A model generated the notes under the pieces. The model saw nothing but the letters and a program-made list of their open reading frames with translations, did not search any database and was not told the origin of the DNA. Positions 4,001 through 19,420 of a stretch of DNA of 30,405 nucleotides are shown here, in pieces. Position numbers and translations under genes: made by a program. The stretch's first letter is position 1, and every line of letters starts with the position of its first letter. The DNA is from Candidatus Hydrogenedentota bacterium (lineage in GTDB: Bacteria; Hydrogenedentota; Hydrogenedentia; Hydrogenedentales; SLHB01). The DNA is taken from contig JARKSN010000204.1 of the NCBI GenBank assembly GCA_029974275.1, positions 1 through 30,405 of the forward strand, in the 5' to 3' direction.

Positions 4001-4038
4001 TAGCATGAACGTCGCCCCCAGGGCGACTCGCCATGCTA
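4001..4038 (-). terminator. Stem-loop at the stop of the REC-GGDEF-like gene
   Basis: TAGCATG...GTCGCCC-tgg-GGGCGAC...CATGCTA (- strand) is an interrupted hairpin. There is no clear U-tract. Confidence 0.35.
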
Positions 4039-4965
4039 TTGCATGCCGCGACGGTCCAGGCATATGCCGCCGCTCCTGGCTTCGATCGATTTGCCGCGGA
4101 GGTGAGTCAGGATTTCGAAAAGCTGTTGGGGCGTTCGCGGCGTGGCGCGATCAGAGAAGCTCACGCAAAAAAGCACATCCAACTCAAGGCGAGGATCCTT
4201 CTCCCGGGATTCGGATGCGGGTCCCCGCTGGATGGCGGTCGATCCTATTCGGGCATATAACGAGGCGAGTCCCTCCTGCCAGATTTCCCGGACTCGCGAA
4301 CAGTATGCCTGGACCTGATCGGCGCTCAACAAGCTAACGAAATGACCGCCGCTCATGTGTCCCGAAAAGACGCTTTCCCCCCCGAATTCCTGGTTGCATG
4401 TCTGAAGAACCTGGGCAAATGCAGTGATAATGCGTATTCGCGCTTCCTCGCCGTACCGGTACGAAAATTCCCGGACATTCGTGACTTCCCCATAGGCCAC
4501 GGCAAAAGGTTCGCCGCACCCGAGGCGTCGCTGGATTTCGCGCTTGGTGGATTCGGCCCCGTGCATTCCCGTGAGGGGGTCGATGTCCACCGTGTTTGCG
4601 TGGGATCGCAGGAGAGAATCGATGCGTTGTAGCAATTGGCCGACATGGAACGGCTTGGAGACGTAGTCATCGGCGCCTTGCGCCAAGCCATGGAAAACCT
4701 CTTCCTCGCTGTCCATTGAGGAAAGGATGAGAATAGGCAGTGTATAGAGAGAAGCGCTTCGACGCATGCGGCGGCAGAGTTCAAATCCCGACACGCCCGG
4801 AAGCATGACGTCCACAATGAGCAAGTCGAATTTCCCTTGCTGCATGGCATCGATTACTTGATCGCCCGATCGGATGACTGTGCAATGATGGCCTTGAGCG
4901 ACCAATTGCTGTTGCAATACAGCGACCGCCTTCGCGTCGTTCTCTGCAATCAGAATCCGGGCCAT
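4036..4965 (-). CDS. Response regulator: REC domain + degenerate GGDEF-like domain
   Basis: The REC domain (ILIAEND, LLIVDVMLP, GADDYVSKPF) is followed by DPLTG...FAVAY...YG...GHMSGGHF. The start is placed at ATG 4965 behind AGGAGAGGATGGAG; the ORF track starts at 5001. Confidence 0.85.
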   Translation of the reverse strand: MARILIAENDAKAVAVLQQQLVAQGHHCTVIRSGDQVIDAMQQGKFDLLIVDVMLPGVSGFELCRRMRRSASLYTLPILILSSMDSEEEVFHGLAQGADDYVSKPFHVGQLLQRIDSLLRSHANTVDIDPLTGMHGAESTKREIQRRLGCGEPFAVAYGEVTNVREFSYRYGEEARIRIITAFAQVLQTCNQEFGGESVFSGHMSGGHFVSLLSADQVQAYCSRVREIWQEGLASLYARIGSTAIQRGPASESREKDPRLELDVLFCVSFSDRATPRTPQQLFEILTHLRGKSIEARSGGICLDRRGMQ

Positions 4966-5352
4966 TCTCCATCCTCTCCTCGCATGCGCGGTGCCTTTCA
5001 AACGGTGTTCGCGATATACACGCCTCCAATGGTCACAAGCGGCTGCTCGATGCGAAGCGCTGCCCCAACTTTCCCCGGTAGTAAGGTAGCAGCCTTATGC
5101 CGACGTGTCAAGAGATGTTTTTACTATGAAACCCGTAGTTCATGCGCCTTCGAGAACCGCGCCCGATATTGCGGGGCATCTGTTGGAAAGCCTTATGCCG
5201 CAGGCATGTGCACCCATGCGATCAGAATTTTTTGCATGCCGTTGCACGGATATGGGGATGGTTCCGGATAGTGTTTTCGCCGAGTTTTCAAGACGGCGTT
5301 TCCGCCTCCTGGAAATGCCGTTATACGAAATCCCGGATAACTGAAAGTACTG

Positions 5353-5407
5353 TCCGGAAAACATGGAGACGCTCCGGAAAAACCGGACCCCTTCCGGGGA
5401 AAGTGGA
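5353..5407 (+). promoter_or_regulatory. Putative upstream activator array: three 15-bp palindromes on a 20-bp period
   Basis: TCCGGAAAACATGGA (5353), TCCGGAAAAACCGGA (5373) and TCCGGGGAAAGTGGA (5393). A weaker fourth site TCCCGGATAACTGAA may lie at 5331. Confidence 0.7.
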
Positions 5408-5463
5408 AGTAAAACCGGCGACTTTGAGATCGGGAATAAAGAAGGGTTTCGCAAGTCAATGTA

Positions 5464-5476
5464 TTTCAATGTGTTA
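5464..5476 (+). promoter_or_regulatory. IHF-like binding site
   Basis: TTTCAATGTGTTA has one mismatch to WATCAANNNNTTR. It lies in an AT-rich patch between the palindrome array and the sigma54 site. Confidence 0.45.
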
Positions 5477-5521
5477 CAGATGTATTCCTGCTTCGCTTCG
5501 GTTTCATTCCTTCAACGTCCG

Positions 5522-5539
5522 TTGGCATGTTACTTGATA
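5522..5539 (+). promoter_or_regulatory. sigma54 (-24/-12) promoter of the cheA operon
   Basis: TTGGCATGTTACTTGATA gives GG-N10-GA against consensus TGGCACGNNNNTTGCW. It lies about 70 nt upstream of the cheA start. Confidence 0.7.
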
Positions 5540-5607
5540 ATAAGCCCAATAGGCACGGATCGGCATTGACTGGGGGTTTGGAAATGGAGTCTGCGGGAGG
5601 AAGAGGC

Positions 5608-8154
5608 ATGCTGACGGCTGAGCAAGAACAGATCGAACGCTTATCGGAATCCCTGCTCCTCGCTGCCCCTTCGGACATACAAGAACTTGCAGGATTTCAC
5701 ACCCAGTTTCAGGAAATCGCCGCGTGGGCGCTTCAGCGTCATTTCCCTTCCGCCTCCCAAGTTTCTCGAAAAGCGGCGGACGTCATCGAGCAGGTCATTC
5801 TGGGGGAGGCCGTGAATCCCCAGCAGGCGCTCGACGATGTCTGCCAAGCGGCGGCATTCATTCAAAGCGTCGTGTGCGCGGGAAAAAATCCCGGGGACCT
5901 CCCGCTTCCCGATGCATTCAAAATCGCGGAGACAATGGATGAAAATGCGGGCGATCTCCCGGACAATGGGAACGATGCCGCAGGGGATAACGGCGCCGCA
6001 CCGAAGGGTGCGCACAAGACGTCCGATACGACGACGGGGCAGGGATCGGAACCTTCCAGCGCGGAAAGCAACATGTTTGCCAATGACCCGGAATTGATGG
6101 CGGAGTTCATCCAAGAAGCCCGGGAACACTTGGAGGCGGCCGATGTTCATTTGCTGACTTTGGAGACGGAACCCGACAACGAAGAGGCGCTGAATGCGGT
6201 TTTTCGAGCGTTTCACACGCTTAAAGGCAATGCCGGCTTCTTGGCCCTTCCCGAGATTCAATGCTTGGCCCATGAAGCGGAGAGCCTGCTCGATCGCGCC
6301 CGGAAGCGAACCCTCCAACTGGAGGGCAAAGCGATGGATGTGGCGTTTGACGCCGTAGACGCTCTCAAGGGGCTTGTAGGGCAGATATCCGAAAGGCCTG
6401 CCCCGGAAAGTCTTTTGGCTCAGCAGGTTGAATTAGAGCGCCTTCGCGAGCGGTTGCGCGCCATTGCCGAAGGATCGGAAAACGAGACCAAGACCGCCGA
6501 AATGTCTGACGACGCGGAAGTCGCCGAAGGCATGAAATTGGGCGAAATCCTAGTCGAAACGGGTGTTGCGACCGAGTCTGCCGTCGAACATGCCCTGCAG
6601 GAACAGCAGGCAACTCCCCAACCCAAAAGACTGGGCGAAATCCTGGTCGAACACGTTGCCACATCCAGCCACGCCGTTCAGGAAGCGCTCGAGATACAAC
6701 GCAACGGTTCTGAGTCCCGGAAAATCGGCGAGATCATGGTGGAATTGGGGTCTGCGTCCCCGGAAGCGATAGACGCCGCCCTGGAATGCCAACAGCGGAC
6801 CCCGGAAAATCCCAAACTGGGGGAACTCTTGGTGCGCGCAGGCGAAGCGCCCGCAAAAGACGTAGCCCGCTCCCTTCGCAGTCAGCAGCAGGCTGGCGTC
6901 GCGGGCGAACACATGAAAGAGTCCGTGAAAGTGGATGCGGCGCGTCTTGACCGCCTCATCGACGCGATTGGCGAAATGGTCATCGCCGAATCGATGGTGA
7001 GTCAGTCACAAGCCGTGCTTCAGGCCAGTTCTCCGGAATTGGCGCGTCATCTGGCCCAACTCGACAAAATTACCCGAGAGTTGCAGGAAATGGGGATGTC
7101 GTTGCGCATGGTGCCGATTCGCCCTGCCTTTCAGCGGATGGCGAGGCTCGCGCGCGATCTGGCGAAGAAATCGGGGAAGCAAGTGGAATTCGTGACGCGC
7201 GGAGAGGACACCGAACTCGACAAGACCGTGGTGGACAAGATCGGCGATCCCTTGGTGCACATGGTGCGCAACGCCATCGACCACGGGATCGAGGAAAGCG
7301 AGGCCGCGCGCATCGCAGCCGGGAAAGCGCCGGCGGGGCGCGTGGAACTGCGCGCGTTTCACAAGGGCGGCAACATTCACATCGAAGTGGAAGACGATGG
7401 CTGCGGCCTTGATCGGGAACGCATCTTGGCCAAGGCGCTGGAGCGGGGGCTTATCCGCGAAGGCGAGATTCTTTCCGATCGCGAGGCGTACAACCTGATT
7501 TTCGAGCCGGGCTTTTCGACGGCGAAGACGGTGACCGACGTGTCGGGCCGAGGCGTGGGGATGGACGTGGTGCGGCGCAACGTCGAAGCCCTGCGCGGCC
7601 AAGTGGAGATTCGATCCGAGAAAGGAAAGGGCGGGCTGTTCAGCATCCGGCTTCCGTTGACGCTGGCCATCATCGACGGCATGGTGGTGCGCGTGGGAAG
7701 CGAACGGTACGTCCTGCCCACGTTATCCATCGTAACCTCGTTGCGTCCAAACGCGAAGAACGTATCCACGGTCGTCCAGCGCGGGGAGATGCTCACCCTG
7801 CAGGAACAGTTGATTCCGATGCTGCGACTGGGGCGTCTGTTCCATGTTCTCGATGCGGAGGAAGAGATGTCGCAATGCATTGCCGTTGTGGTCGAGGCGG
7901 AGGGAAGACGCGCGGCGCTGGTTGTTGACGAGATCATCGGACAACAGCAAATCGTGATTAAATCCCTGGGCGAAACCATGCAGGGCATACCGGCCATCGC
8001 GGGCGGCGCCATCATGGGGGACGGTCGCGTCGGGCTGATCGTCGACGTGAGCGGTCTCATGCGCGTCGCCAAGGAAACCCCGTCCGAGGATGTCCAGCAC
8101 CAGTGCGAAACCAAGCCGGGCTCTTCTGGCGCCGAAGGAGAGGCAACCCCATGA
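5608..8154 (+). CDS. cheA: Chemotaxis histidine kinase CheA with N-terminal helical extension and four MshEN-like repeats
   Basis: Hpt FRAFHTLKGNAG, dimerisation VKVDAARLDRLIDAIGEMVI, HATPase HMVRNAIDHGIE / EDDGCG / IFEPGFSTA..VSGRGVGMDVV, and a C-terminal CheW domain. ATG 5608 follows GGGAGGAAGAGG; the ORF track start at 5527 overlaps the promoter. Confidence 0.97.
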   Translation: MLTAEQEQIERLSESLLLAAPSDIQELAGFHTQFQEIAAWALQRHFPSASQVSRKAADVIEQVILGEAVNPQQALDDVCQAAAFIQSVVCAGKNPGDLPLPDAFKIAETMDENAGDLPDNGNDAAGDNGAAPKGAHKTSDTTTGQGSEPSSAESNMFANDPELMAEFIQEAREHLEAADVHLLTLETEPDNEEALNAVFRAFHTLKGNAGFLALPEIQCLAHEAESLLDRARKRTLQLEGKAMDVAFDAVDALKGLVGQISERPAPESLLAQQVELERLRERLRAIAEGSENETKTAEMSDDAEVAEGMKLGEILVETGVATESAVEHALQEQQATPQPKRLGEILVEHVATSSHAVQEALEIQRNGSESRKIGEIMVELGSASPEAIDAALECQQRTPENPKLGELLVRAGEAPAKDVARSLRSQQQAGVAGEHMKESVKVDAARLDRLIDAIGEMVIAESMVSQSQAVLQASSPELARHLAQLDKITRELQEMGMSLRMVPIRPAFQRMARLARDLAKKSGKQVEFVTRGEDTELDKTVVDKIGDPLVHMVRNAIDHGIEESEAARIAAGKAPAGRVELRAFHKGGNIHIEVEDDGCGLDRERILAKALERGLIREGEILSDREAYNLIFEPGFSTAKTVTDVSGRGVGMDVVRRNVEALRGQVEIRSEKGKGGLFSIRLPLTLAIIDGMVVRVGSERYVLPTLSIVTSLRPNAKNVSTVVQRGEMLTLQEQLIPMLRLGRLFHVLDAEEEMSQCIAVVVEAEGRRAALVVDEIIGQQQIVIKSLGETMQGIPAIAGGAIMGDGRVGLIVDVSGLMRVAKETPSEDVQHQCETKPGSSGAEGEATP

Positions 8155-8642
8155 AAGCCGAATACGTCAACCCATTCGTTGAAAGCGTGTATGAATTGTT
8201 CGTGTCCATGCTGAACGCCAACGCGCGAAAAGGCGAAGTGACCCTATCCACCAATAACGTCAAACCGCGCCAGTTGACCGCCCTCATCGGCTTCAGCGGC
8301 CCGGTCCGCGGCATGGTCGCGATGTCTTTTCCCGTCAATACGGCGTTGGCCATGGTGAGCCGTCTTCTGGGAACGCAAGTTCTGGTGGTGGACGACACGG
8401 TTTCGGATGCGGTGGGCGAATTCGTCAACATCGTATCGGGGGCGGCCAAGGCGAAGTTTTCAGGAGATGGCCCGCCCATCGACTTGAGCTTGCCGACGGT
8501 GGTGCGAGGCAGTGGCTATGTCGTGGATTATCCGTCGCGGGCACGATGGCTGGAAGTTCATTTTGACAGCGATCTGGGACCTTTCAGTCTTCAAATCACG
8601 TTCGAGACGCAGCAGACTGCAAAGGATGGAGGCGCCCCATGA
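8151..8642 (+). CDS. cheX: CheX chemotaxis phosphatase
   Basis: MKAEYVNPFVES N-terminus, DAVGEFVNIVSG (ExxN) and LSLPTVVRG. ATGA overlap with the cheA stop; RBS AAGGAGAGG. Confidence 0.9.
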   Translation: MKAEYVNPFVESVYELFVSMLNANARKGEVTLSTNNVKPRQLTALIGFSGPVRGMVAMSFPVNTALAMVSRLLGTQVLVVDDTVSDAVGEFVNIVSGAAKAKFSGDGPPIDLSLPTVVRGSGYVVDYPSRARWLEVHFDSDLGPFSLQITFETQQTAKDGGAP

Positions 8643-9013
8643 AAGCACTTGTTGTAGACGATTCCGTGGTGATGCGAAGAGTGCTGATCGGCGCGCTCAG
8701 CCGGGCCGGCATCACGGAGGTCGCGGAGGCGGCGGACGGCTGCGAGGCGGTCAAGGCCGTCGCGGAGGCGGAGTACGATCTGGTTTTGATGGACTGGAAC
8801 ATGCCGAACATGCTGGGAATAGACGCCGTGCGGGAGATGCGCGCGCAAGGAAAGAAAGTTCCCGTCATCATGGTGACGACCGAGGCGGAAAAATCACGCG
8901 TCATTGAAGCCATCAAGGCGGGCGCTAACAACTATATCATCAAGCCATTTGATTCCAAGGGCATCGTCGACAAAATTCATGAAGTGCTCGAGAAGGCGGC
9001 TCCGGTTCAATAA
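8639..9013 (+). CDS. cheY: Single-domain response regulator CheY
   Basis: VVDDS, LMDWNMP, MVTTE and NYIIKPF. ATGA overlap with cheX; RBS GGAGG. Confidence 0.93.
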   Translation: MKALVVDDSVVMRRVLIGALSRAGITEVAEAADGCEAVKAVAEAEYDLVLMDWNMPNMLGIDAVREMRAQGKKVPVIMVTTEAEKSRVIEAIKAGANNYIIKPFDSKGIVDKIHEVLEKAAPVQ

Positions 9014-9054
9014 CGGAAGCAGGTTCGAGACGCGGAAAGGGAGGCGTTTCCCAT

Positions 9055-10050
9055 ATGCACGCAATCGCATCGGGAAAGTCGCAATGCGGCGAAACCGGAA
9101 AGGAGACGGACAATGTCTACCGGTTGCACCGGAAGCGTCCTATCTGGAAATCCCAGCCACGATTGGAAAAAACGCGCGAGAAGGGCGTTGCGTTTCGGAC
9201 GTCGCCCGTATCCCGCTTGTCGCGCCGCCCGGAAGCGTTTTTGATGGACGCCGCCGTCTTCGAGAAGTTTCGCGCGCTCGTCCACGATCGCAGCGGCATT
9301 TCGCTAGGTCCGAACAAGGAATCGTTGGTGTCGGCGCGCATTGCAAAACGCATGCGTTGTCTCGGGGTCGCGACGCATGAGGACTACCTTGAACATGTCC
9401 TGGGCGACGAGACAGAAATGATCTTTCTTATCGATGCAATATCGACCAACGTGACCAGTTTTTTCCGGGAGCCGGACCATTTCAATTTCCTGCGCACGAT
9501 CGTTCCGCAATGGGTCGCCAAAGGGCAAACCCGCTTTCGCTTTTGGTCTGCGGCGAGTTCTTCGGGCGAAGAGCCGTACACGTTGGCGGTAACGCTGCTC
9601 GACGCGCTGCAAGGCCGCAATCTGGACGTGCGCATCTTGGCCACGGACATCTCCACCCGCATGCTCGACAAGTGTCGCGAGGCGCTGTATAGCGAGGAGC
9701 GGATGCGGAACGTGCCGCGCGCCATCCGAGACCGGTATTTCATCCCCTGCCGCAGCGAACGCGAGATTCTCGGCTATTCGCCCATCGAGGAGGCCCGGCG
9801 CCTGATAGCCTTCCGGCGCTTGAACCTCTCCCAGCCCCCTTTTCCCATGCAGGGCCCGATGGACGCCGTTTTCTGCCGAAACGTGATGATCTATTTCGAC
9901 AATGCCGTGAGGAAACGGCTTTTGGAGGACATTTATCGCCTGCTGAAGCCGGGAGGATATCTCTTCGTGGGACATGCCGAAAGCCTGACGGGAATCATGA
10001 GCCGCCTGGTTCCGGTGCGTTCGTCCGTCTACATGAAGCCGAGCAAGTGA
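9055..10050 (+). CDS. cheR: Protein-glutamate O-methyltransferase CheR
   Basis: STNVTSFFRE, WSAASSSGEEPY, ILATDIS, FCRNVMIYF and GGYLFVGHAESL. The conserved core begins at ATG 9244, but ATG 9055 has a GGGAGG RBS, so the start is uncertain. Confidence 0.93.
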   Translation: MHAIASGKSQCGETGKETDNVYRLHRKRPIWKSQPRLEKTREKGVAFRTSPVSRLSRRPEAFLMDAAVFEKFRALVHDRSGISLGPNKESLVSARIAKRMRCLGVATHEDYLEHVLGDETEMIFLIDAISTNVTSFFREPDHFNFLRTIVPQWVAKGQTRFRFWSAASSSGEEPYTLAVTLLDALQGRNLDVRILATDISTRMLDKCREALYSEERMRNVPRAIRDRYFIPCRSEREILGYSPIEEARRLIAFRRLNLSQPPFPMQGPMDAVFCRNVMIYFDNAVRKRLLEDIYRLLKPGGYLFVGHAESLTGIMSRLVPVRSSVYMKPSK

Positions 10051-10102
10051 GTTTCGCCGTCGAATCCCGGGCGAAACGCGGGGAAGCATCGAGGAGCAAG
10101 CA

Positions 10103-10582
10103 GTGCAACATACGGTTGGAATCTCCGAACTAAAAATATCCACGGATCCCGAGGACGTGATCATCACCTACTCTCTGGGGTCGTGCGTTGGACTATCGCT
10201 CTACGATCCCGAGGCGAGAGTGGGGGGGATGATCCATTGCATGTTGCCGCTGTCGAAGATTGATCCGGCCAAGGCGGCCTCCAATCCTGCGATGTTCACG
10301 GACACGGGGGTGGTGTTGCTGATCCAGACCATGCTCGACGCCGGCGCCTCGATCAAACGGCTTGTCGCGAAGGTGGCGGGCGCTTCGCAGCTCATGGACC
10401 AGACGGATACCTTCAAGATTGGCGAACGGAACTACGTGGTTTTGCGGAAGGTCCTTTGGAAGAACAATATTCTGATTGCCGCCGAAGATGTGGGCGGAGC
10501 CGTAGCGCGCACGATGGCGCTGTACATGACCAACGGCAAGACCACGGTGCGAAAAAAAGGCGAGGAGATCGAATTGGCGTAG
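10103..10582 (+). CDS. cheD: Chemoreceptor glutamine deamidase CheD
   Basis: TYSLGSCVG, GGMIHCMLP, AKVAGAS, IGERN and AEDVGG. GTG start after GAGGAG. Confidence 0.93.
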   Translation: MQHTVGISELKISTDPEDVIITYSLGSCVGLSLYDPEARVGGMIHCMLPLSKIDPAKAASNPAMFTDTGVVLLIQTMLDAGASIKRLVAKVAGASQLMDQTDTFKIGERNYVVLRKVLWKNNILIAAEDVGGAVARTMALYMTNGKTTVRKKGEEIELA

Positions 10583-10643
10583 CCTACATTGCGGATGATC
10601 CCCGTGGATCGTCCGCGACGGGACGCATAACGGCGGGAGTGCC

Positions 10644-11489
10644 ATGCCCTATCGACACCAAATAGAACGCGAAATTGACGCCGTGCCTGCGCTGCCTGGC
10701 GCGTCGGCGGAGGCGCTTCAACTTGTGCAGCGTCCCGACGTGAGCGTGGCGGAACTAACCAAAGCGATTGCGTTCGATCCCGGATTGACCGCCAACGTGC
10801 TTCGTTTGGCCAATTCGGCGTACTACGGGAAGGGAAGGTCCATCGGTTCCCTGCAGGAGGCGACGGTGCGGCTGGGCATGCGATGCGTCGAACAACTGGT
10901 GGTTACGGCCGCCGTGACGCCCTATGCGCGCAACCCCTTGCAGGGATATGATTTGCCGGCAGGCGATTTGTTGCGCCATTCGACCTTGACGGCGGTGGTT
11001 GCCCTGGAGCTTGCCGAGGCGATCCGGAAAACGCCCCCGCCGCGCGCGTTCACGGCGGCCTTGTTGCACGATCTGGGCAAGATCGTATTGGGCACGTTCG
11101 TCAAGGTGGACGCCGGCCCGATACTCCAGTTGGTTGCGCAGGAGAAGAAGAGATTTCACGATGCCGAGCGCGAGGTGTTGGGGATCGACCATGCCGAGGC
11201 GGGCGCCCTTTTGCTGCAGCGATGGAGCCTGCCCCTCGAGATCGTCGACGCGGTCAGGTGGCACCATGATCCGGGACTCTGCAGCGAGACAAGTTTGATC
11301 TTGGACCTGGTCCACGCAGCGGACGCAGTGAGCATGAGCAGCGGCGTCGGCGCGGGGGTGGACGGGTTGAGTTACCGGTTATCCGAGGCCGTGGGAGCCC
11401 GGCTGTCGTTGCGCGAAACCATGATTGAGGGCGTGATGAGTCGAGCATTCACGAAGTGGAGCGATCTTTGCGCGACCATCGCCTTCTAG
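10644..11489 (+). CDS. HDOD domain signal transduction protein
   Basis: DPGLTANVLRLANSAYY, AFTAALLHDLGK, GIDHAEAGALLLQRWSLP and VRWHH. Confidence 0.92.
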   Translation: MPYRHQIEREIDAVPALPGASAEALQLVQRPDVSVAELTKAIAFDPGLTANVLRLANSAYYGKGRSIGSLQEATVRLGMRCVEQLVVTAAVTPYARNPLQGYDLPAGDLLRHSTLTAVVALELAEAIRKTPPPRAFTAALLHDLGKIVLGTFVKVDAGPILQLVAQEKKRFHDAEREVLGIDHAEAGALLLQRWSLPLEIVDAVRWHHDPGLCSETSLILDLVHAADAVSMSSGVGAGVDGLSYRLSEAVGARLSLRETMIEGVMSRAFTKWSDLCATIAF

Positions 11490-11510
11490 GGCGATCAGGA
11501 GGACCCGCAT

Positions 11511-11889
11511 ATGGGACTGAACATACTCATTGTGGACGATTCGGACACTGTCCGGGCCGTCATCGCCAAGACGCTTACGATGTGCGGCTTGCCCATCAAC
11601 GAGGTCTACCAAGCCCCCAACGGCAAGGTCGCCCTCGAGATTCTCGCGGAAAAGTGGGTCGACCTCGTTTTTTCGGACATCAACATGCCCGTCATGGGGG
11701 GCGTGGAAATGATTGAAAAGATGCACGAAAACGATCTGCTCACTTCCATACCGGTCATCGTGGTCTCGACAGAGGGCAGCGCGACGCGCATGGAACAACT
11801 CAAGAGCAAAGGGATTCGCGCCTATCTGCGCAAACCCTTCACGCCGGAACTGGTCAGGGGCGTCGTCAACGACATCGTGGGGTTGCGTC

Positions 11890-11909
<20 letters not shown>
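11511..11909 (+). CDS. Second CheY-like single-domain response regulator
   Basis: ILIVDDS, FSDINMP, VVSTE and YLRKPF; RBS AGGAGG. Confidence 0.92.
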
Positions 11910-13441
<1,532 letters not shown>

Positions 13442-13686
13442 GGGAACACGACGGCGTATTCAAAATGAGAATGTTCCGCTTCCAGATTCATGCCTCGTTG
13501 ATCGAACGCGCCCGGCTGTCGCTCTAGGCGGCGCCCCGGAATCGCAACCCCTCCGCTCCACTAACTCAGAGACGCCGCTTTCGTGCGCTTGTGTTCGTCA
13601 CATATTCACCGTGAATGGACTGATGCCTACGTTAGGCGAACAAAGGATGGTTTCGCCGGGGATTTGAAAAGGGATCCAGAAAATGC

Positions 13687-13718
13687 GCGACAGGGCGTCC
13701 TTGCGGACGCCCTGTCGC
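13687..13718 (-). terminator. Probable intrinsic terminator of the cheW-MCP operon
   Basis: A perfect 14-bp stem GCGACAGGGCGTCC/GGACGCCCTGTCGC has a GCAA loop on the - strand and is followed by GCATTTTC. It lies 26 nt after the MCP stop. Confidence 0.7.
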
Positions 13719-13744
13719 ACGTGCCATTGGGGGGAGGAGAGGGA

Positions 13745-15805
13745 TCAGAAGTCTTTCAGTTCGTCGTCATCCAGCGGGATCACTTCCTCGGGGCGCGCAT
13801 GGGACGACTTTGCGGTTGCGCCTACGAGGGCATGTTTTCCCATGCGGTTTTTCGCGGCGCTTTCCGATTTTCCATTATGTTTTATGGGCTCTGCATGGCT
13901 TCCGATTCGAAGGTCGTGGGACGCGGCATGAGCCGCCGCAGGATGTTGTCTCAGAGGCCCGCGGGCCGACGCTTGGGCGCGTCCATTTTGGGCGGCGGCT
14001 TTGCCGCTCACCAGGGCCGTCAGTGCGTTCACGACTTCGTTGAGTTCGGCGGCCTGGGCCGACAATTCCTCGCTGGCCGAGGCGGCCTCTTCGGAACTGG
14101 CTGCGTTGGCCTGCGTGAGTTGGTCCATCTGCGCGATGGCCGTGTTGATCTGCTCAATGCCCTGCGCTTGTTCGTTGCTGGCAGCCGCCACTTCGCCGAC
14201 GAGTTGCGTCACCTTGCCGATGCTGATGGCGATTTGCTCCAGGATGGATCCTACCTCCCCGGCCACCGCGACGCCGTTGTCCGCGTTCTGTTGAGAGCCC
14301 TCGATCAACGCGGCGGTATCCTTGGCGGCTTGGGCGCTGCGTTGGGCCAGATTCCGCACCTCTTCGGCCACCACGGCGAAGCCCTTGCCGGCGTCGCCCG
14401 CCCGGGCCGCCTCTACCGCCGCATTCAAGGCAAGCAGATTGGTCTGGAAGGCGATTTCGTCGATCGTTTTGATGATCTTGGCCGTCTGGTCCGACGAAGC
14501 CTTGATTTTGTCGATGGCTTCGGACATTCGGACCATGGCGTGCTGGCCTTTTTCGGCGGCATTCCGGGATTCCGTCGACATGGTCGAAGCCTGGTTGGCG
14601 TTGTCGGCGTTCTGCTTGGTCATGGAGGTCATTTCTTCCAGCGAGGCGGAGGTTTCCTCTAGGCTCGATGCCTGCTCGCTGGCGCCTTCGGCCATCGACT
14701 GGCTCGATTGCGCCACTTGGTTGGCTGCGGAGCCCACCTGCTCGGAGCCCTGGGTCAGGCTGTCGATCACATTGCCGATGGGTTTCGTGATCGATCGGGT
14801 GATGTAGACGGCCATCAACACCCCAAAGACCGCGCCAATGGCCAGGCCGATGATCATGGTCCATGTGCCGATGGCCAGCGAGTGAACGGCGGTCTTGGCC
14901 CCGTCGGCCGTATAGTTCATGCCCTCGAGCGCTGTGCCCTTGGATGCGTCCAAAACTTTCTGCGCGGTTTCACGCCGTTTCGTGTTGAGGTCTTCCCGTG
15001 CCAGCCATTCTTTCAAGAAGCTTTCCATACAACCCAAATAGATCTTCCCTGCTTCGCTGCATTCGTCAATCAGTTTGATGTCTTCGGGCCGATCGGTCGT
15101 TTTCCGGAGTTCCGCCAATTTGGCGTTCACATTCTCGAAGATAGCCTCTGTCTCTTGGAACAGTTTCGGGTCTCGACCCGCGATCGAACGCCATGTTCCG
15201 GCGATGATGGCGTTGCCGAGGTCGATGATATCGTTCACGATGGCTATCTGGGCGTTAAGGGGCAGCACATCCGCCGCTTTCGCAAGGGGGTTCTTGGCCA
15301 GATCGGCGATGGCCGCTTCTTTTGCCTTGATGAAGGCATAGCAGCAATCCATGTATTTCTTGGCGGCTTCGAGAGATTTCTCTTTCTCGATTGCCATGGC
15401 TTCCGTGGCCTTGACGGTTTGTTCGAACACCATACCATAATTAGTCGCTTCCGCGGAGGCCGTTTCGGCGTTCTTCTTCAGCCACTCGATGTTTTCCTGG
15501 GCGGCCAGTTCGGAGGCCTTCTGTAAGTGCGCCTTCACGTTTTCCAGTTCCTTGCGCGTGTCTTCCAGGTATTGTTGTTCCTCCGTGTACGCGTAGCCGC
15601 GCGCCGCATACATGGTGGCAAGCGACGAACGCTCGACGTCGTTGGCCACCGCGACGGCGGGCACGTTCTTGTTTTGCATGATTTTGGCGATGGCGCTGAC
15701 TCCGTTCATGCTCCACACGGCCAAGCCGCCCAAAACCACCGCGATGAGGATAAGCAGGACGAAACCGGTCCCGATTTTGGCTCCCAATCCCATGTTTCCA
15801 AACAT
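13745..15805 (-). CDS. Methyl-accepting chemotaxis protein (2 TM, large helical extracellular domain, C-terminal pentapeptide-like tail)
   Basis: [42 protein letters not shown] hairpin tip, two hydrophobic helices, and the end ...[18 protein letters not shown]. Confidence 0.96.
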
Positions 15806-15865
15806 ATGCAGTTCTCCTTTTCTGCGACTCTTCCGCCCCCCTTGATGTGATGGCGGGTCATCGGT

Positions 15866-16396
15866 TTAGTCGGACACATCCCCAGCGCTCTGACGCACGA
15901 GCGACAGTTCATCGCCTGACAGGACTCGATCCAAATCCAACAACATAATCACCCGTTCTCCGACTTTGCCCATCCCCAAGATGAATGTCGTGTCCACATT
16001 CGTGCCAAAATCCGGAGACGGCTCAATCTGATCCGGGCCGATATCGACCACTTCGGACACCTGATCGACGATGATGCCTAATGTCACCTGATGCCCGGAG
16101 GCCCCGATCTGAACGACGATAATGCAGGTCCGTTCTGTCTGTTCCTGAGACTCCAGGGAGAACCGGCTGCGTAAATCGATGACCGGAATGACTTTTCCCC
16201 GAAGATTGATGACCCCCCGCACGAAATCGGGCATGCGGGGCACCCGCGTCACCGACGTCATGCCGATGATTTCCTGAACTTTGAGAATCTGGAGGCCATA
16301 GGGCTCCTCCCCCAGTTCAAAGGTGAGGTATTGGCCCGCGATATCTTTCCAGGCGCAGACCTCTGCCTGAACCGATGTTCCCGTTTCTTCTCTCAT
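15866..16396 (-). CDS. cheW: Chemotaxis coupling protein CheW
   Basis: QYLTFEL, VQEIIG, VRGVINLRGKVIPVIDLR and GIIVDQVSEV. ATG 16396 follows GGGAGGTG. Confidence 0.95.
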   Translation of the reverse strand: MREETGTSVQAEVCAWKDIAGQYLTFELGEEPYGLQILKVQEIIGMTSVTRVPRMPDFVRGVINLRGKVIPVIDLRSRFSLESQEQTERTCIIVVQIGASGHQVTLGIIVDQVSEVVDIGPDQIEPSPDFGTNVDTTFILGMGKVGERVIMLLDLDRVLSGDELSLVRQSAGDVSD

Positions 16397-16539
16397 GGAT
16401 TTCACCTCCCCAGTTGCTCAATTTCCTTTGACAATGGCTGCTCGGCAGTGGCGCCCGCGCCTCCCCTGCGGGCGATCCTATTGTGAAGACCTCTCCGGCG
16501 ACGACATCCGCCTCGGCGTGTTCCGGGCGTCGTTCATCC

Positions 16540-16986
16540 TTACCCCTGCCGCAATCCGTTCCTTGCGGTCTTGGCTTCAGGCGCCGCATGCGGCGCCTCT
16601 ACCTCCAGTCCGACATTGCCGATGAGCTCCGCCATCTTGGCCAGCACGGCCACCACGTCGTCCAGGTTGTTCTCGATATCCGTGAGAAAACGCGGATATA
16701 GGGAATGGCCCTTCGATATGGTTTCGGGGGATGCGTCGGGCAGAATGAGAATGCAGCGATATTCCGCCAACACGTCCCGAAAGACCAGCAGGCGCGCAAG
16801 CTCTTCCTGATTCTCTGCCAAAAGAACCACCACGGTATTCCGTTTGTCTGCATCTCGAAGTTCCAGCAGGAACTCTGGAAGAGCCCCGCAGGGACGCCAA
16901 CTGCCCGGAAGCAGCGCCGCTTCGATCGTGCGTTCGAGTCTCTTCCCTAGAGGGTCTGCCGCTCGTCTGTAGAGGAGAATTGTCAC
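16540..16986 (-). CDS. Small hypothetical alpha/beta protein, possibly a degenerate receiver fold
   Basis: GTG 16986 follows GGAG, directly downstream of the sigma54 site. The pattern alternates strand and helix (TILLY, TVVVLLAE, CILILPD, YPRFLTD). The longer ORF-track start at 17187 runs through the regulatory region. Confidence 0.65.
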   Translation of the reverse strand: MTILLYRRAADPLGKRLERTIEAALLPGSWRPCGALPEFLLELRDADKRNTVVVLLAENQEELARLLVFRDVLAEYRCILILPDASPETISKGHSLYPRFLTDIENNLDDVVAVLAKMAELIGNVGLEVEAPHAAPEAKTARNGLRQG

Positions 16987-17024
16987 GTGTTCCACTCCAG
17001 ATATCCGGCTTGCACAGCAACATG

Positions 17025-17042
17025 TATCAAGCGCCGTGCCAA
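17025..17042 (-). promoter_or_regulatory. sigma54 (-24/-12) promoter of the hypothetical-cheW-MCP operon
   Basis: The - strand reads TTGGCACGGCGCTTGATA: a perfect -24 box, GG-N10-GA, and the same TTGATA -12 as upstream of cheA. Confidence 0.78.
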
Positions 17043-17067
17043 GACGAAAAGAAACGGCGATATGTTG

Positions 17068-17080
17068 AAAGCGATTGATA
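17068..17080 (-). promoter_or_regulatory. IHF-like binding site
   Basis: The - strand reads TATCAATCGCTTT, one mismatch to WATCAANNNNTTR, between the palindrome array and the promoter. Confidence 0.45.
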
Positions 17081-17136
17081 GGAAAGGAGTTCCGCAAACC
17101 GTCCGCTCGGGGCGCGCGATCGGCGGCTTCTGGCGT

Positions 17137-17191
17137 TCCGGTTTTTCTGGACAGAGTCCAGTTATTCCGTATCCGCTCCGGGTTCACCGGA
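17137..17191 (-). promoter_or_regulatory. Putative upstream activator array: three 15-bp palindromes on a 20-bp period
   Basis: On the + strand: TCCGGTTTTTCTGGA (17137), TCCAGTTATTCCGTA (17157) and TCCGGGTTCACCGGA (17177). Confidence 0.72.
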
Positions 17192-17208
17192 CGATGGGAA
17201 GGGGTAGG

Positions 17209-18618
17209 CTATTCCGTACCAGAAAGATGATGTTTTTTCAGCAGTTCGTAGAGGCGGGACTTGGAAAGCTCCGAGAGTTCGCAGGCTTCCTTGACATTCC
17301 CTTTTGTGGCGGAGAGCAGTTTTTGTAAGTACTGTCTTTCTGCAGCGTCGACGGCGCCGCTGCGGAATGCATGAAAGGAGGGCAGAGAGGCCAATCCGTT
17401 GGGGCGGACGTCTGGGCGGTCCTGGGGGGCCGATGTCGCGGGAAGGGAGTCGCAGGCTTTTTGAATGCGCAGATATAACGGCAGGTGTCTGGCAAACAAG
17501 GTGCTCTCCTGACCGGCATTGGCAAGGGCCCAATCGACGGCATTGAGGAGTTCGCGGACGTTGCCGGGCCAGGAATAGGACTCGAGCGCCTCGAAGAAAT
17601 CCGGCGAAAAACGTCGGGTGTCCGCCTGATGGCTCTCGCACAGTCGGTCGAGATAGCTCAAGACAATGTATTTGATGTCGTCGGAGCGTTTGCGGAGCGG
17701 CGGCAATTCGATAGAGATGGTCTGAAGGCGGAATAGGAGATCGCTTCGGAAACGGCCCGCTTTTACTTCTTCGTTCAGGTCTCGATTGGTTGCGGAAACC
17801 AGCCTGAAAGCGCTTCGTATCTCTCGATTGCCGCCGACGGGACGGAAGCAACGCTCCTGGAGCACCCGCAAGAACGCCCGCTGCACGGCAAGCGGCAGCT
17901 CGCCGATTTCGTCGAGAAACAGAGTCCCCTTGTCCGCCTGTTCCACCAGCCCCGACTGGGTTTTGTCGGCGCCTGTAAAGGCCCCTTTGACGTGGCCAAA
18001 CAGGACGCTTTCCACCAGATTGGCGGGCAGCGCCGCACAATCCACGACAACGAAGTTTTCCCCTGCGCGCGGACTGTTTTCGTGGATGGCGCGTGCGAAA
18101 AGCTCCTTTCCTGTTCCGGTTTCGCCGGTGATGAGGACGTTGACGTGGCTGCCTGCGGCCTGGGCCAACAGATCAAAACATCCTCGCATGGAGGGGCTTT
18201 TGCCGGCGATGTTTCCGAGATTCAGCGCCATGGCAGGGCGGTTCGCCGTTTTTTCTTCCCGGTACTTGAGAACGCGCGTCAACTGCAACGTCAACTCATT
18301 GCTAGATATGGGCTTGTGAATGTAGTCCCAGGCGCCGTTTTTGATGGCAAGTTCCGCGCCCGACGGGTCGCCGTCGCCGGTCACGATGATGACTTCTGGG
18401 GGGGATGCGACTTCGCGGATGACCGGCAACGCTGCCAAACCGTTGCCATCGGGAAGGCAGACATCCAGTATCGTCACGTCGAATTGCCCGGCGCGGAGTT
18501 CGTCAAGGCCTTTTTGGAGGGAGCTCGCCGCTGTGGCCTCGTGCCCCATTCCTCGGATGCGGCGGATCAGCATATCGCACAGGATCGCGTCGTCATCGAT
18601 TACCAGAATGCTTGCCAT
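17209..18618 (-). CDS. NtrC-family sigma54-dependent response regulator (REC-AAA+-Fis HTH)
   Basis: ILVIDDD, ILDVCLPDG, Walker A GETGTGKE, GAFTGA, GTLFLDEIG, FRSDLLFRL, WPGNVREL and a C-terminal HTH (GNVKEACELSELSKSRLYELLKKH). Confidence 0.96.
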   Translation of the reverse strand: MASILVIDDDAILCDMLIRRIRGMGHEATAASSLQKGLDELRAGQFDVTILDVCLPDGNGLAALPVIREVASPPEVIIVTGDGDPSGAELAIKNGAWDYIHKPISSNELTLQLTRVLKYREEKTANRPAMALNLGNIAGKSPSMRGCFDLLAQAAGSHVNVLITGETGTGKELFARAIHENSPRAGENFVVVDCAALPANLVESVLFGHVKGAFTGADKTQSGLVEQADKGTLFLDEIGELPLAVQRAFLRVLQERCFRPVGGNREIRSAFRLVSATNRDLNEEVKAGRFRSDLLFRLQTISIELPPLRKRSDDIKYIVLSYLDRLCESHQADTRRFSPDFFEALESYSWPGNVRELLNAVDWALANAGQESTLFARHLPLYLRIQKACDSLPATSAPQDRPDVRPNGLASLPSFHAFRSGAVDAAERQYLQKLLSATKGNVKEACELSELSKSRLYELLKKHHLSGTE

Positions 18619-18973
18619 GCATCACCTCGCTGCCAACAGGCCTTGCGTGGCGACTTTTCGGGCGCAATGCATGATGCCGCTTCCCCCCAATGCTCTACTG
18701 CAGGCCATGGGAGATCGAAGTGCAATCTCGGGCGTTAAGCCCGATCCGGCTCGATTGCTCGTCTCGCCTAACTGGCCAGCTTGGATGTCTTGCCACGCTG
18801 GAAACGGATTAAGTATACACGATCATGCTGGATTTTTCACGGGAAAGTACCTAGTCAATGCAAATTATGCGCAACAATACCAGATGCGCCGATCTTTTTT
18901 CATAAACCGCGCATGAGGGAAGCGTGGGAGGTTGCAGCCTACCCCAGAAATATCGGTTGCAGGTTTTGGGTGG

Positions 18974-19420
18974 TCATTTTGCAAAGTATTGGGGAGGCGG
19001 CGGGGACTGGGATTGGGACATCGGATCCGCCGCCCTCGTTGTCTTGTCCTCGGAAGGGCGATGGATTTGCACAATGACGTAGCGTCCGTCCCGCAAGGAG
19101 GAATAGGGAGTTAGCTGAAGATGATGGTTGTGGTGGTGGTTGGATGAGTGGGGGGCATGATAGCGATGTTCCGTGCTGACGATTTTTCCGATGATTCCCG
19201 AGGGGTTCTCCGGGGTGTAGTCTACCGAAGCGCCGGGAAACTGACGGCAGAGCTTGAATAGTTCCCCCAGGAGTTGGGGGCTATCACAGACGATTCTGCC
19301 GGCGCGGTTGTGGCGTTGGTCGCACCAGGTGATTTCAAACAGCTCATCCGCGAAGTCATGCTGCACACCCTCGGCAATATAGGAGGCCGCGCGATCGGGA
19401 TCGTCAAAATTGGCATGCAT
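18974..19420 (-). CDS. Hypothetical protein with His-rich segment
   Basis: ATG follows AAAGGGAGAG. The first ~90 aa look globular and are followed by HRYHAPHSSNHHHNHH. No family recognised; the true 3' end is uncertain. Confidence 0.4.
   Translation of the reverse strand: MHANFDDPDRAASYIAEGVQHDFADELFEITWCDQRHNRAGRIVCDSPQLLGELFKLCRQFPGASVDYTPENPSGIIGKIVSTEHRYHAPHSSNHHHNHHLQLTPYSSLRDGRYVIVQIHRPSEDKTTRAADPMSQSQSPPPPQYFAK

Follow-up and report, generated by a model that had tools for sequence, protein, structure and literature searches.

The window analysed here, a 30,405-nucleotide stretch of Candidatus Hydrogenedentota bacterium DNA (assembly GCA_029974275.1, contig JARKSN010000204.1, positions 1 to 30,405 of the forward strand), contains two convergent chemosensory operons, each preceded by a σ54-type promoter with an upstream array of three phased palindromes. 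The plus-strand operon has the order cheA-cheX-cheY-cheR-cheD-HDOD-cheY-cheX-cheB, with cheA at 5608..8154 and the remaining genes at 8103..13441. The minus-strand operon (operon 2) begins with the gene of a 148-residue predicted pseudo-receiver (16540..16986), followed by cheW (15866..16405) and the methyl-accepting chemoreceptor gene mcp (13745..15805). A terminator-like 16-pair hairpin with a T-run (13685..13720, minus strand) lies 3' of mcp, between the convergent operons. The sequence-only reading that preceded this work had described two chemosensory operons with a common architecture, which holds, but had operon 2 start with cheW; the pseudo-receiver gene, unlisted and overlooked at that stage, sits between promoter 2 and cheW. 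Since cheA, cheW, mcp, cheR and cheB have one copy each in the genome at E<1e-12, the two operons are, by gene content, the halves of its only Che pathway, with mcp as the only chemoreceptor gene and cheW as the only free-standing cheW found. Comparative sequence evidence makes it likely that the arrays serve the two σ54 promoters as upstream activator sites and that the protein encoded at 17209-18618 binds them and co-activates both halves of this pathway.

Array 1 (5353..5407, plus strand) comprises three TCCGG-N5-CCGGA sites with a period of 20 bp, which start at 5353, 5373 and 5393 and have their centres 164, 144 and 124 nt upstream of the -24 GG. It is followed, 56 nt in the 3' direction, by a site resembling that of integration host factor (IHF), TTTCAATGTGTTA (5464..5476), and by the -24/-12 box of the cheA operon (5522..5539), with TGA at -12 and a start predicted near 5549. 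Array 2 (17137..17191, minus strand) likewise has three TCCGG-N5-CCGGA sites of period 20 (at 17191, 17171 and 17151), centred 144, 124 and 104 nt upstream of the GG; its IHF-like site, TATCAATCGCTTT (17068..17080), also lies 56 nt 3' of the array, and the box of operon 2 (17025..17042) again has TGA at -12, with a start predicted near 17015. The sites of both arrays are palindromic, in helical phase and about 100 bp or more upstream, and the -24 GG/-12 spacing is correct in both promoters. A degenerate fourth activator site (5331..5345, plus strand), with three mismatches and 22 bp upstream of site 1, was absent from the earlier reading. Further upstream of array 1, still in the intergenic region, the two copies of a direct repeat, AGCCTTATGCCG, lie at about 5092-5103 and 5190-5201, at a distance of some 98 bp.

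All strings and coordinates that the sequence-only reading had given for arrays, IHF-like sites and boxes match the window sequence exactly, and the coordinates also bear out its gaps of 116 and 96 nt from array to GG and of 17 nt from the activator stop codon to array 2. The IHF-like sites are present where they had been placed but are weak singly, each being one mismatch from the consensus used for scoring (shuffle p 0.17 for the first alone and 0.02 for the second). The A-rich polarity of the spacers is real in the window (12/15 and 11/15 A) but absent from relatives, whose spacers differ (GC-rich in genome G012), and it was rejected as a family feature. The 'GA' variant at -12 was likewise rejected as a distinguishing feature, as it is common in the family (TGA in 11 of 65 boxes).

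The genome assembly (4.38 Mb, 342 contigs, 100% complete by markers) was scanned at periods of 15-31 bp, and triples with at most 4 of 30 mismatches to TCCGG-N5-CCGGA were confined to the two window arrays (four mismatches in array 1 and three in array 2; the next-best triple has five, with a period of 27). As this consensus had been drawn from the two arrays themselves, a motif-blind scan was added for triples of at least 26/30 with periods of 17-25. It returned 14 triples, mostly GC-rich tandem repeats, and a σ54 box 60-170 nt away was present only for the two window arrays. Boxes resembling σ54 promoters, scored with our own scheme on a consensus, numbered 294 in the genome, and just two of them, both in the window, had a site pair with at most two mismatches upstream. 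The search that had been suggested as a check, for the phased motif with a box, thus yields only the two window promoters. Because these scans single out the two arrays and their boxes, a regulon of two promoters is supported in this assembly. Two further candidates, on contigs C193 (box and pair, four mismatches) and C83 (triple, seven mismatches), apparently lie inside coding sequence and were rejected.

The candidate activator and its orthologues

The gene at 17209..18618 (minus strand) encodes a σ54 activator of the receiver-AAA+-Fis-type helix-turn-helix class, with GAFTGA at residues 212-217 and the recognition helix S452-K-S-R-L-Y-E458. Its receiver residues are intact (D8-10, D52, T80 and K102). 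It matches PF00072, PF00158 and PF02954, the last at 20.1 bits, below the cut-off of 22, and its C-terminal helix aligns to the last helix of Fis, which we take to be the DNA-recognition helix. All 25 NCBIfam equivalogs shown (NtrC, AtoC, ZraR, NorR, FlgR, FlbD, LuxO and others) scored below their cut-offs, the best score being 342.5 against 558.6 for NtrC. The genome encodes 17 full σ54 activators, so adjacency alone proves little; the S-x-S-R-L-Y helix is found only in this one.

A weak σ70-like site (18812..18840, minus strand; 9 of 12, with 4 such sites found against 2.0 expected) could drive the activator gene. Between its stop codon and array 2 (17192-17208) there is no terminator-like site, and read-through across array 2 into operon 2 could therefore give basal expression. 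In most relatives a hybrid kinase is encoded directly upstream of the activator. None is found there in the window genome, whose best matches, a pair of hybrid kinases encoded on contig C14, lack an adjacent activator; for this reason the description of the regulon as self-contained was too strong. An open reading frame (ORF) of 148 codons with no Pfam match (18974-19420, minus strand) occupies the place upstream of the activator where relatives carry the kinase.

Of 135 genomes of the phylum, 14 yielded the activator and 11 the pseudo-receiver, 10 genomes being common to both sets. Directly downstream of 8 of the 12 full-length orthologues lies an array with a σ54 box, followed by pseudo-receiver, cheW and mcp genes or by mcp. 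The spacing of the arrays is retained in these relatives (19-23 bp) and the letters vary. TCCGG half-sites accompany the helix SRLYE (G012, G045 and G116), TCCTG accompanies SRLYA (G108, G117 and G119), and TCTTG or TATTG accompanies PRLYA (G014 and G008). Genomes G120 and G121, each with an Ala-type activator, have two unlinked pseudo-receiver/cheW/mcp cassettes apiece, and TCTTG pairs with 0-1 mismatches precede all four; in G014, the array at a second che promoter is of the TCTTG type but weak, with five mismatches per pair. Helix/half-site covariation, orthologue cassettes and unlinked promoters all support the proposal, made in the sequence-only reading, that the NtrC-type neighbour is the likely activator, and the comparative evidence also supports its assignment of both promoters as σ54-type with upstream activator sites. 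On these sequence comparisons, the 17209-18618 protein is a well-supported candidate for the binder of both arrays.

Several observations weigh against this interpretation. The downstream cassette is missing from 4 of the 12 orthologues, and in G045, G129 and G031 the σ54 promoters that precede che genes lack an array. In 33 other cheA loci, of which 1.5 kb or less was examined (some loci being shorter), the gene is never immediately preceded by an array. The TCCGG pair occurs in 15 of the 135 genomes against 8 for a reversed control, mostly in genomes lacking the activator, and was rejected as a regulon marker by itself. Evidence for a place of cheA in the regulon comes from G014 and G108, where the gene is encoded 3' of the cassette promoter and on its strand. 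We infer that part of the lineage has cheA in this regulon, by operon fusion in those genomes and by a second promoter copy here. Of note, locus L213 (G002 C84:1-2326), at the start of a contig, has a pseudo-receiver/mcp cassette with an array of the TCCTG type, and the activator was not found in that genome with the query used.

Residue-to-base correspondence in the activator subfamily

A rule connecting helix and half-site was formulated from the loci of the phylum before 92 Desulfobacterota paralogue loci were fetched; a full-length activator alignment gave generic activators, which served only as entry points to the Desulfobacterota genomes. The set comprised 105 loci, of which 104 were scorable and 65 had a box (10 from the own phylum and 55 others). 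Base 4 of the half-site tracks residue 458, Glu going with G and Ala, Ser, Thr or Gly with T. Among the 55 other loci, TCCGG was favoured for all six S-R-x-Y-E proteins and TCCTG for all four S-R-x-Y-A proteins. With Ser, Thr and Gly included, which were added after the data had been seen, 18 of 19 favour the T form and one is tied (Fisher p 7e-6, kinship ignored). In dinucleotide shuffles, the predicted motif was enriched at p<0.05 in 5/6 Glu loci and 14/19 small-residue loci. When loci were placed on a tree built from the receiver and AAA+ region, 33 of 34, drawn from two phyla, were concordant; the residue changes six times on this tree and the base seven. An N4 spacer performed worse than N5 at most clear-array loci and better at L221 (29 vs 26).

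Other results count against the rule or narrow it. The difference between predicted and alternative motif reached p<0.05 in only 4/6 and 7/19 loci in the same shuffles, and 31 of the 65 loci had been dropped before the count of 33/34 (22 with other helices, 8 with no clear array and 1 tie). Independent contrasts on well-supported branches number only two, which usually both agree and are too few for significance, and L269, with the helix PRLYE, favours T. A DNA-first search was also made with the exact TCCGG pair, found in 101 metagenome stretches, from which 79 distinct loci were examined. In favour of the proposed regulon, a box lay at the right distance in 11 of the 79, and 7 of these 11 had an activator, pseudo-receiver or mcp gene. 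The activator helix could be seen at four loci and reads SRFYE at two near-identical ones, SQLYH at the third and TQLYA at the fourth, so that two of the four activators beside exact TCCGG pairs lack Glu. Because of these two exceptions, the rule is taken to hold for Arg-containing helices and is not universal. As further observations, the helix GRTRLYT (L174, L183 and L237) adds another code word, the arrays after activators of this kind being TTCAC/TCCAC-N5, and Asp at position 458 goes with mixed TCCGA/TCCTG halves (L227).

Taken more broadly, we lean slightly towards the view that the recognition helix of a large, unnamed activator subfamily (at least 6,354 proteins at E<=1e-100) embodies a simple code for phased 5-N5-5 palindromes, in which Glu or a small residue at 458 would specify G or T at base 4, and Ser or Pro at 454 the second and third bases. 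One branch of the subfamily would run a mobile activator/pseudo-receiver/CheW/receptor cassette that took over a whole chemotaxis pathway, with the pseudo-receiver as its new signalling part.

Promoter geometry, proposed mechanism and competing explanations

In the 33 promoters of the family that have a clear pair, the spacing between the centre of a site and the GG clusters with a 10-10.5-bp period (R 0.59; kinship is ignored in the Rayleigh p), and the window centres (164/144/124 and 144/124/104) are in a common phase with each other and with the family. The 20-nt difference between the two promoters, which the sequence-only reading had equated with one array period, is exact as a number but reads as two helical turns and not as a special property of the array; array 1 sits 20 nt further out than the commonest position in the family. 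Of 30 spacers, namely the two of the window and 28 of 32 others (L187, L231, L242 and L269 were left out), 12 contain an IHF-like site with at most one mismatch, where 4.1 would be expected. A third site with at most four mismatches is present in 19 of the 33 promoters, and the other 14 have only two clear sites; triples are thus common but not general in the family.

In the mechanism proposed, an unlinked hybrid kinase would phosphorylate the activator at D52, and activator dimers would load cooperatively on one helix face (20 bp corresponds to roughly two turns) and assemble into the AAA+ ring. Bending of the DNA at the IHF-like site would carry this ring to the σ54 polymerase, with the looping geometry preserved by the offset of 20 nt from one promoter to the other, and open complexes would form near 5549 (plus strand) and 17015 (minus strand). 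In relatives, one such promoter would head a fused operon; in the window, the cluster would have been split, with each half receiving its own promoter copy.

The case for a requirement of all three sites is evenly balanced. The same activator and promoters might operate without the triple being a hexamer template: two strong sites would recruit the activator, phosphorylation would drive the ring as in NtrC, and the third site would add affinity only. This is a variant within the best explanation that competes with the three-dimer hexamer mechanism of the sequence-only reading, and we regard it as a serious candidate that falls a little short of an even chance. It would accommodate the 14 family promoters with no third site, the range of family periods (19-23 bp), the degenerate fourth site at 5331 and the intact receiver residues of the activator. 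Published sources are cited here and below for the parts consulted; on hexamer formation, PMC2831303 contrasts NorR, which needs three sites, together with IHF, at norVW, with NtrC, which relies on its receiver domain. That same need of NorR for all three sites argues the other way, as do the triples in 19/33 family promoters and in both window arrays and the three sites of most promoters of LurR (PMC6456213), a Desulfovibrio activator compared below.

The other explanations depart further from the preferred one, in which the 17209-18618 protein acts at both arrays. With 17 activators in the genome, another of them, for instance a flagellar one, might bind the arrays, leaving the neighbour as bystander or co-regulator. 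Precedents are that LurR and NrfR cross-bind shared sites (PMC6456213) and that the published D. vulgaris regulators for flagella and pili work through sites unlinked to their own genes (PMC4641369). However, the half-site covaries with the helix of the neighbour in two phyla and at unlinked promoters, that helix occurs in no other activator of the genome, and no array is found at a flagellar promoter there (two boxes only), all of which renders the idea quite improbable. It is also unlikely, though worth stating, that only array 2 works, the cheA array being a leftover of rearrangement, serving the divergent receiver gene at 4036-5001 or acting repressively. Such a view could draw on the 33 other cheA loci with no array directly before the gene, on the position of array 1 beyond the commonest one in the family and on its singly non-significant IHF-like site. 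Yet the two arrays are equally intact (four mismatches in array 1, three in array 2), array 1 is in phase and has a box scoring 19.9, no matching minus-strand box lies near it, and the arrangement in G014 and G108 places cheA in the regulon elsewhere. That the arrays are chance GC-rich palindromes is barely credible: TCCGG pairs do arise by chance in GC-rich genomes and the consensus was first taken from the two window arrays, but the motif-blind scan still singles out both, and the motif recurs after orthologues in other genomes.

Operon products and comparison with known systems

The first gene of operon 2 has a GTG start, and its product has conserved LPD and GHxLxPR motifs; ORFs 16577-17023 and 16540-17187 were rejected as genes or starts, since both overlap the promoter. 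The protein belongs to no Pfam family, all 30 of its 30 matches in the ESM Atlas are nameless and add no family, and a related-locus search with it found no relative; with its profile, 2,491 clusters (50% identity) are retrieved. The predicted model (pLDDT 92.8) was compared by VIA with the KdpE receiver, giving Z 13.7 and rmsd 2.5 over 116 aligned residues, and the top 16 rows are all receivers; Foldseek with the same model gave no match at E<=0.001. At the receiver positions, as judged from the secondary structure of the predicted model, no phosphoacceptor Asp, acidic pocket or Lys is conserved in 114 sequences of the small protein. Because the receiver fold comes with none of these residues, the protein is predicted to be a pseudo-receiver, with a CheY-like five-stranded fold devoid of phosphorylation residues.

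The start of cheA is likely at 5608 and possibly at 5584, the listed ATG at 5527 falling within the promoter. Its product contains, between Hpt and dimerisation domain, three copies of the repeat (R/K)xGExLV (window 5584-8154), which correspond to motifs of MshEN-related binding of cyclic di-GMP (c-di-GMP), and scores 73.5 against a cut-off of 38 with an MshE-related c-di-GMP-binding model; for these reasons the CheA kinase may be c-di-GMP-sensitive. The signalling domain of the chemoreceptor is collinear with E. coli Tar/Tap profiles and, by inference, 36H-like. The genome also contains rpoN, three IHF/HU-family genes (not distinguished), flagellins and a FliM whose N-terminal segment ILSQDEID is presumably the CheY-binding element, and the likely output of the pathway is the flagellar switch. 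The divergent gene at 4036-5001 (minus strand) encodes a receiver, the only Pfam match, and a C-terminal domain that by eye resembles a degenerate GGDEF (DPLTG ... SGGHF). Outside the cluster there are a second cheD-HDOD pair and a third cheX (G000 C125 1-907 and C248 45878-46396).

The promoter architecture is textbook. What appears to be unreported is the motif, together with the assignment of its activator, the cassette that includes the pseudo-receiver and the candidate code for recognition. No report of the motif, cassette, regulon or residue-to-base rule was found in the open-access literature, the search covering neither subscription journals nor motif databases such as RegPrecise. The array is absent from the supplement tables of PMC4641369 consulted (supplement 3, parts 1-5 of 6), and the part of PMC3162934 consulted has nothing on the motif. 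In anaerobes with dozens of σ54 activators, the pairing of activators with promoters is largely unknown, and this locus provides a predicted activator-motif-target assignment for the whole chemotaxis pathway of an uncultured lineage. Because the repeat letters change with one activator residue in relatives, the targets of such an activator are likely readable from its sequence, and the rule makes a one-residue prediction, namely that E458A would shift TCCGG to TCCTG. If true, the rule would extend to thousands of paralogues and offer orthogonal activator/enhancer pairs, and the regulons of thousands of activators in activator-rich anaerobes would become predictable, and re-targetable, from protein sequence.

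Among characterised systems, E. coli NorR at norVW is alike in having three consecutive palindromic enhancer sites and an IHF site between enhancer and σ54 promoter (PMC2831303). There, three dimers are proposed to make one hexamer, the three-site need having been shown, in the part of that source consulted, for NorR only. NorR differs in its GAF/NO sensor and GT-N7-AC sites, whereas the window activator has a receiver domain and scores 293.6 with the NorR model (cut-off 476).

Desulfovibrio LurR (DVU3023) and DVU0653 resemble the window system in their receiver-type activator, in TCCG-type half-sites, often three per promoter, and in having the target downstream; a kinase is encoded upstream (PMC6456213, PMC4641369). 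The sites of LurR and DVU0653 are of the TCCG-N6 type (PMC4641369), and the three sites of LurR are shared with NrfR (PMC6456213). LurR sites read TCCG-N6-C(A/G)GA with irregular spacing (39 and 100 bp at DVU3025), in contrast to TCCG-N7-CGGA at 20 bp in the window; LurR targets lactate genes with the helix SHFYS, the window activator chemosensory genes with SRLYE. With its N7 core, che targets and no adjacent kinase, the window does not belong to the LurR regulon. A Desulfopila homologue (48.5% identity) precedes L-lactate dehydrogenase genes and has LurR-type sites, and for this reason a LurR-like branch appears to be kin. Its locus (L089 4001-8735, Desulfopila aestuarii), of the same activator subfamily, comprises a kinase, an activator with the SHFYS helix, two LurR-type sites and the L-lactate dehydrogenase genes.

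Two other Desulfovibrio regulators are likened to the window by site geometry alone. DVU2114 (pili) has TC(C/T)A-N7-T(A/G)GA sites of the same geometry, and DVU2989 (phage shock) has, in strain G20, three sites at intervals of exactly 20 bp; half-site bases and targets differ in both (PMC4641369). Lastly, the che clusters of Geobacter and Desulfovibrio also include chemotaxis operons under predicted σ54 promoters (PMC2577667, PMC4641369). In the parts of these sources consulted, those promoters have no activator or upstream site assigned (the regulator cell is empty for DVU0750 and DVU1962), whereas the window offers both a candidate activator and its motif.

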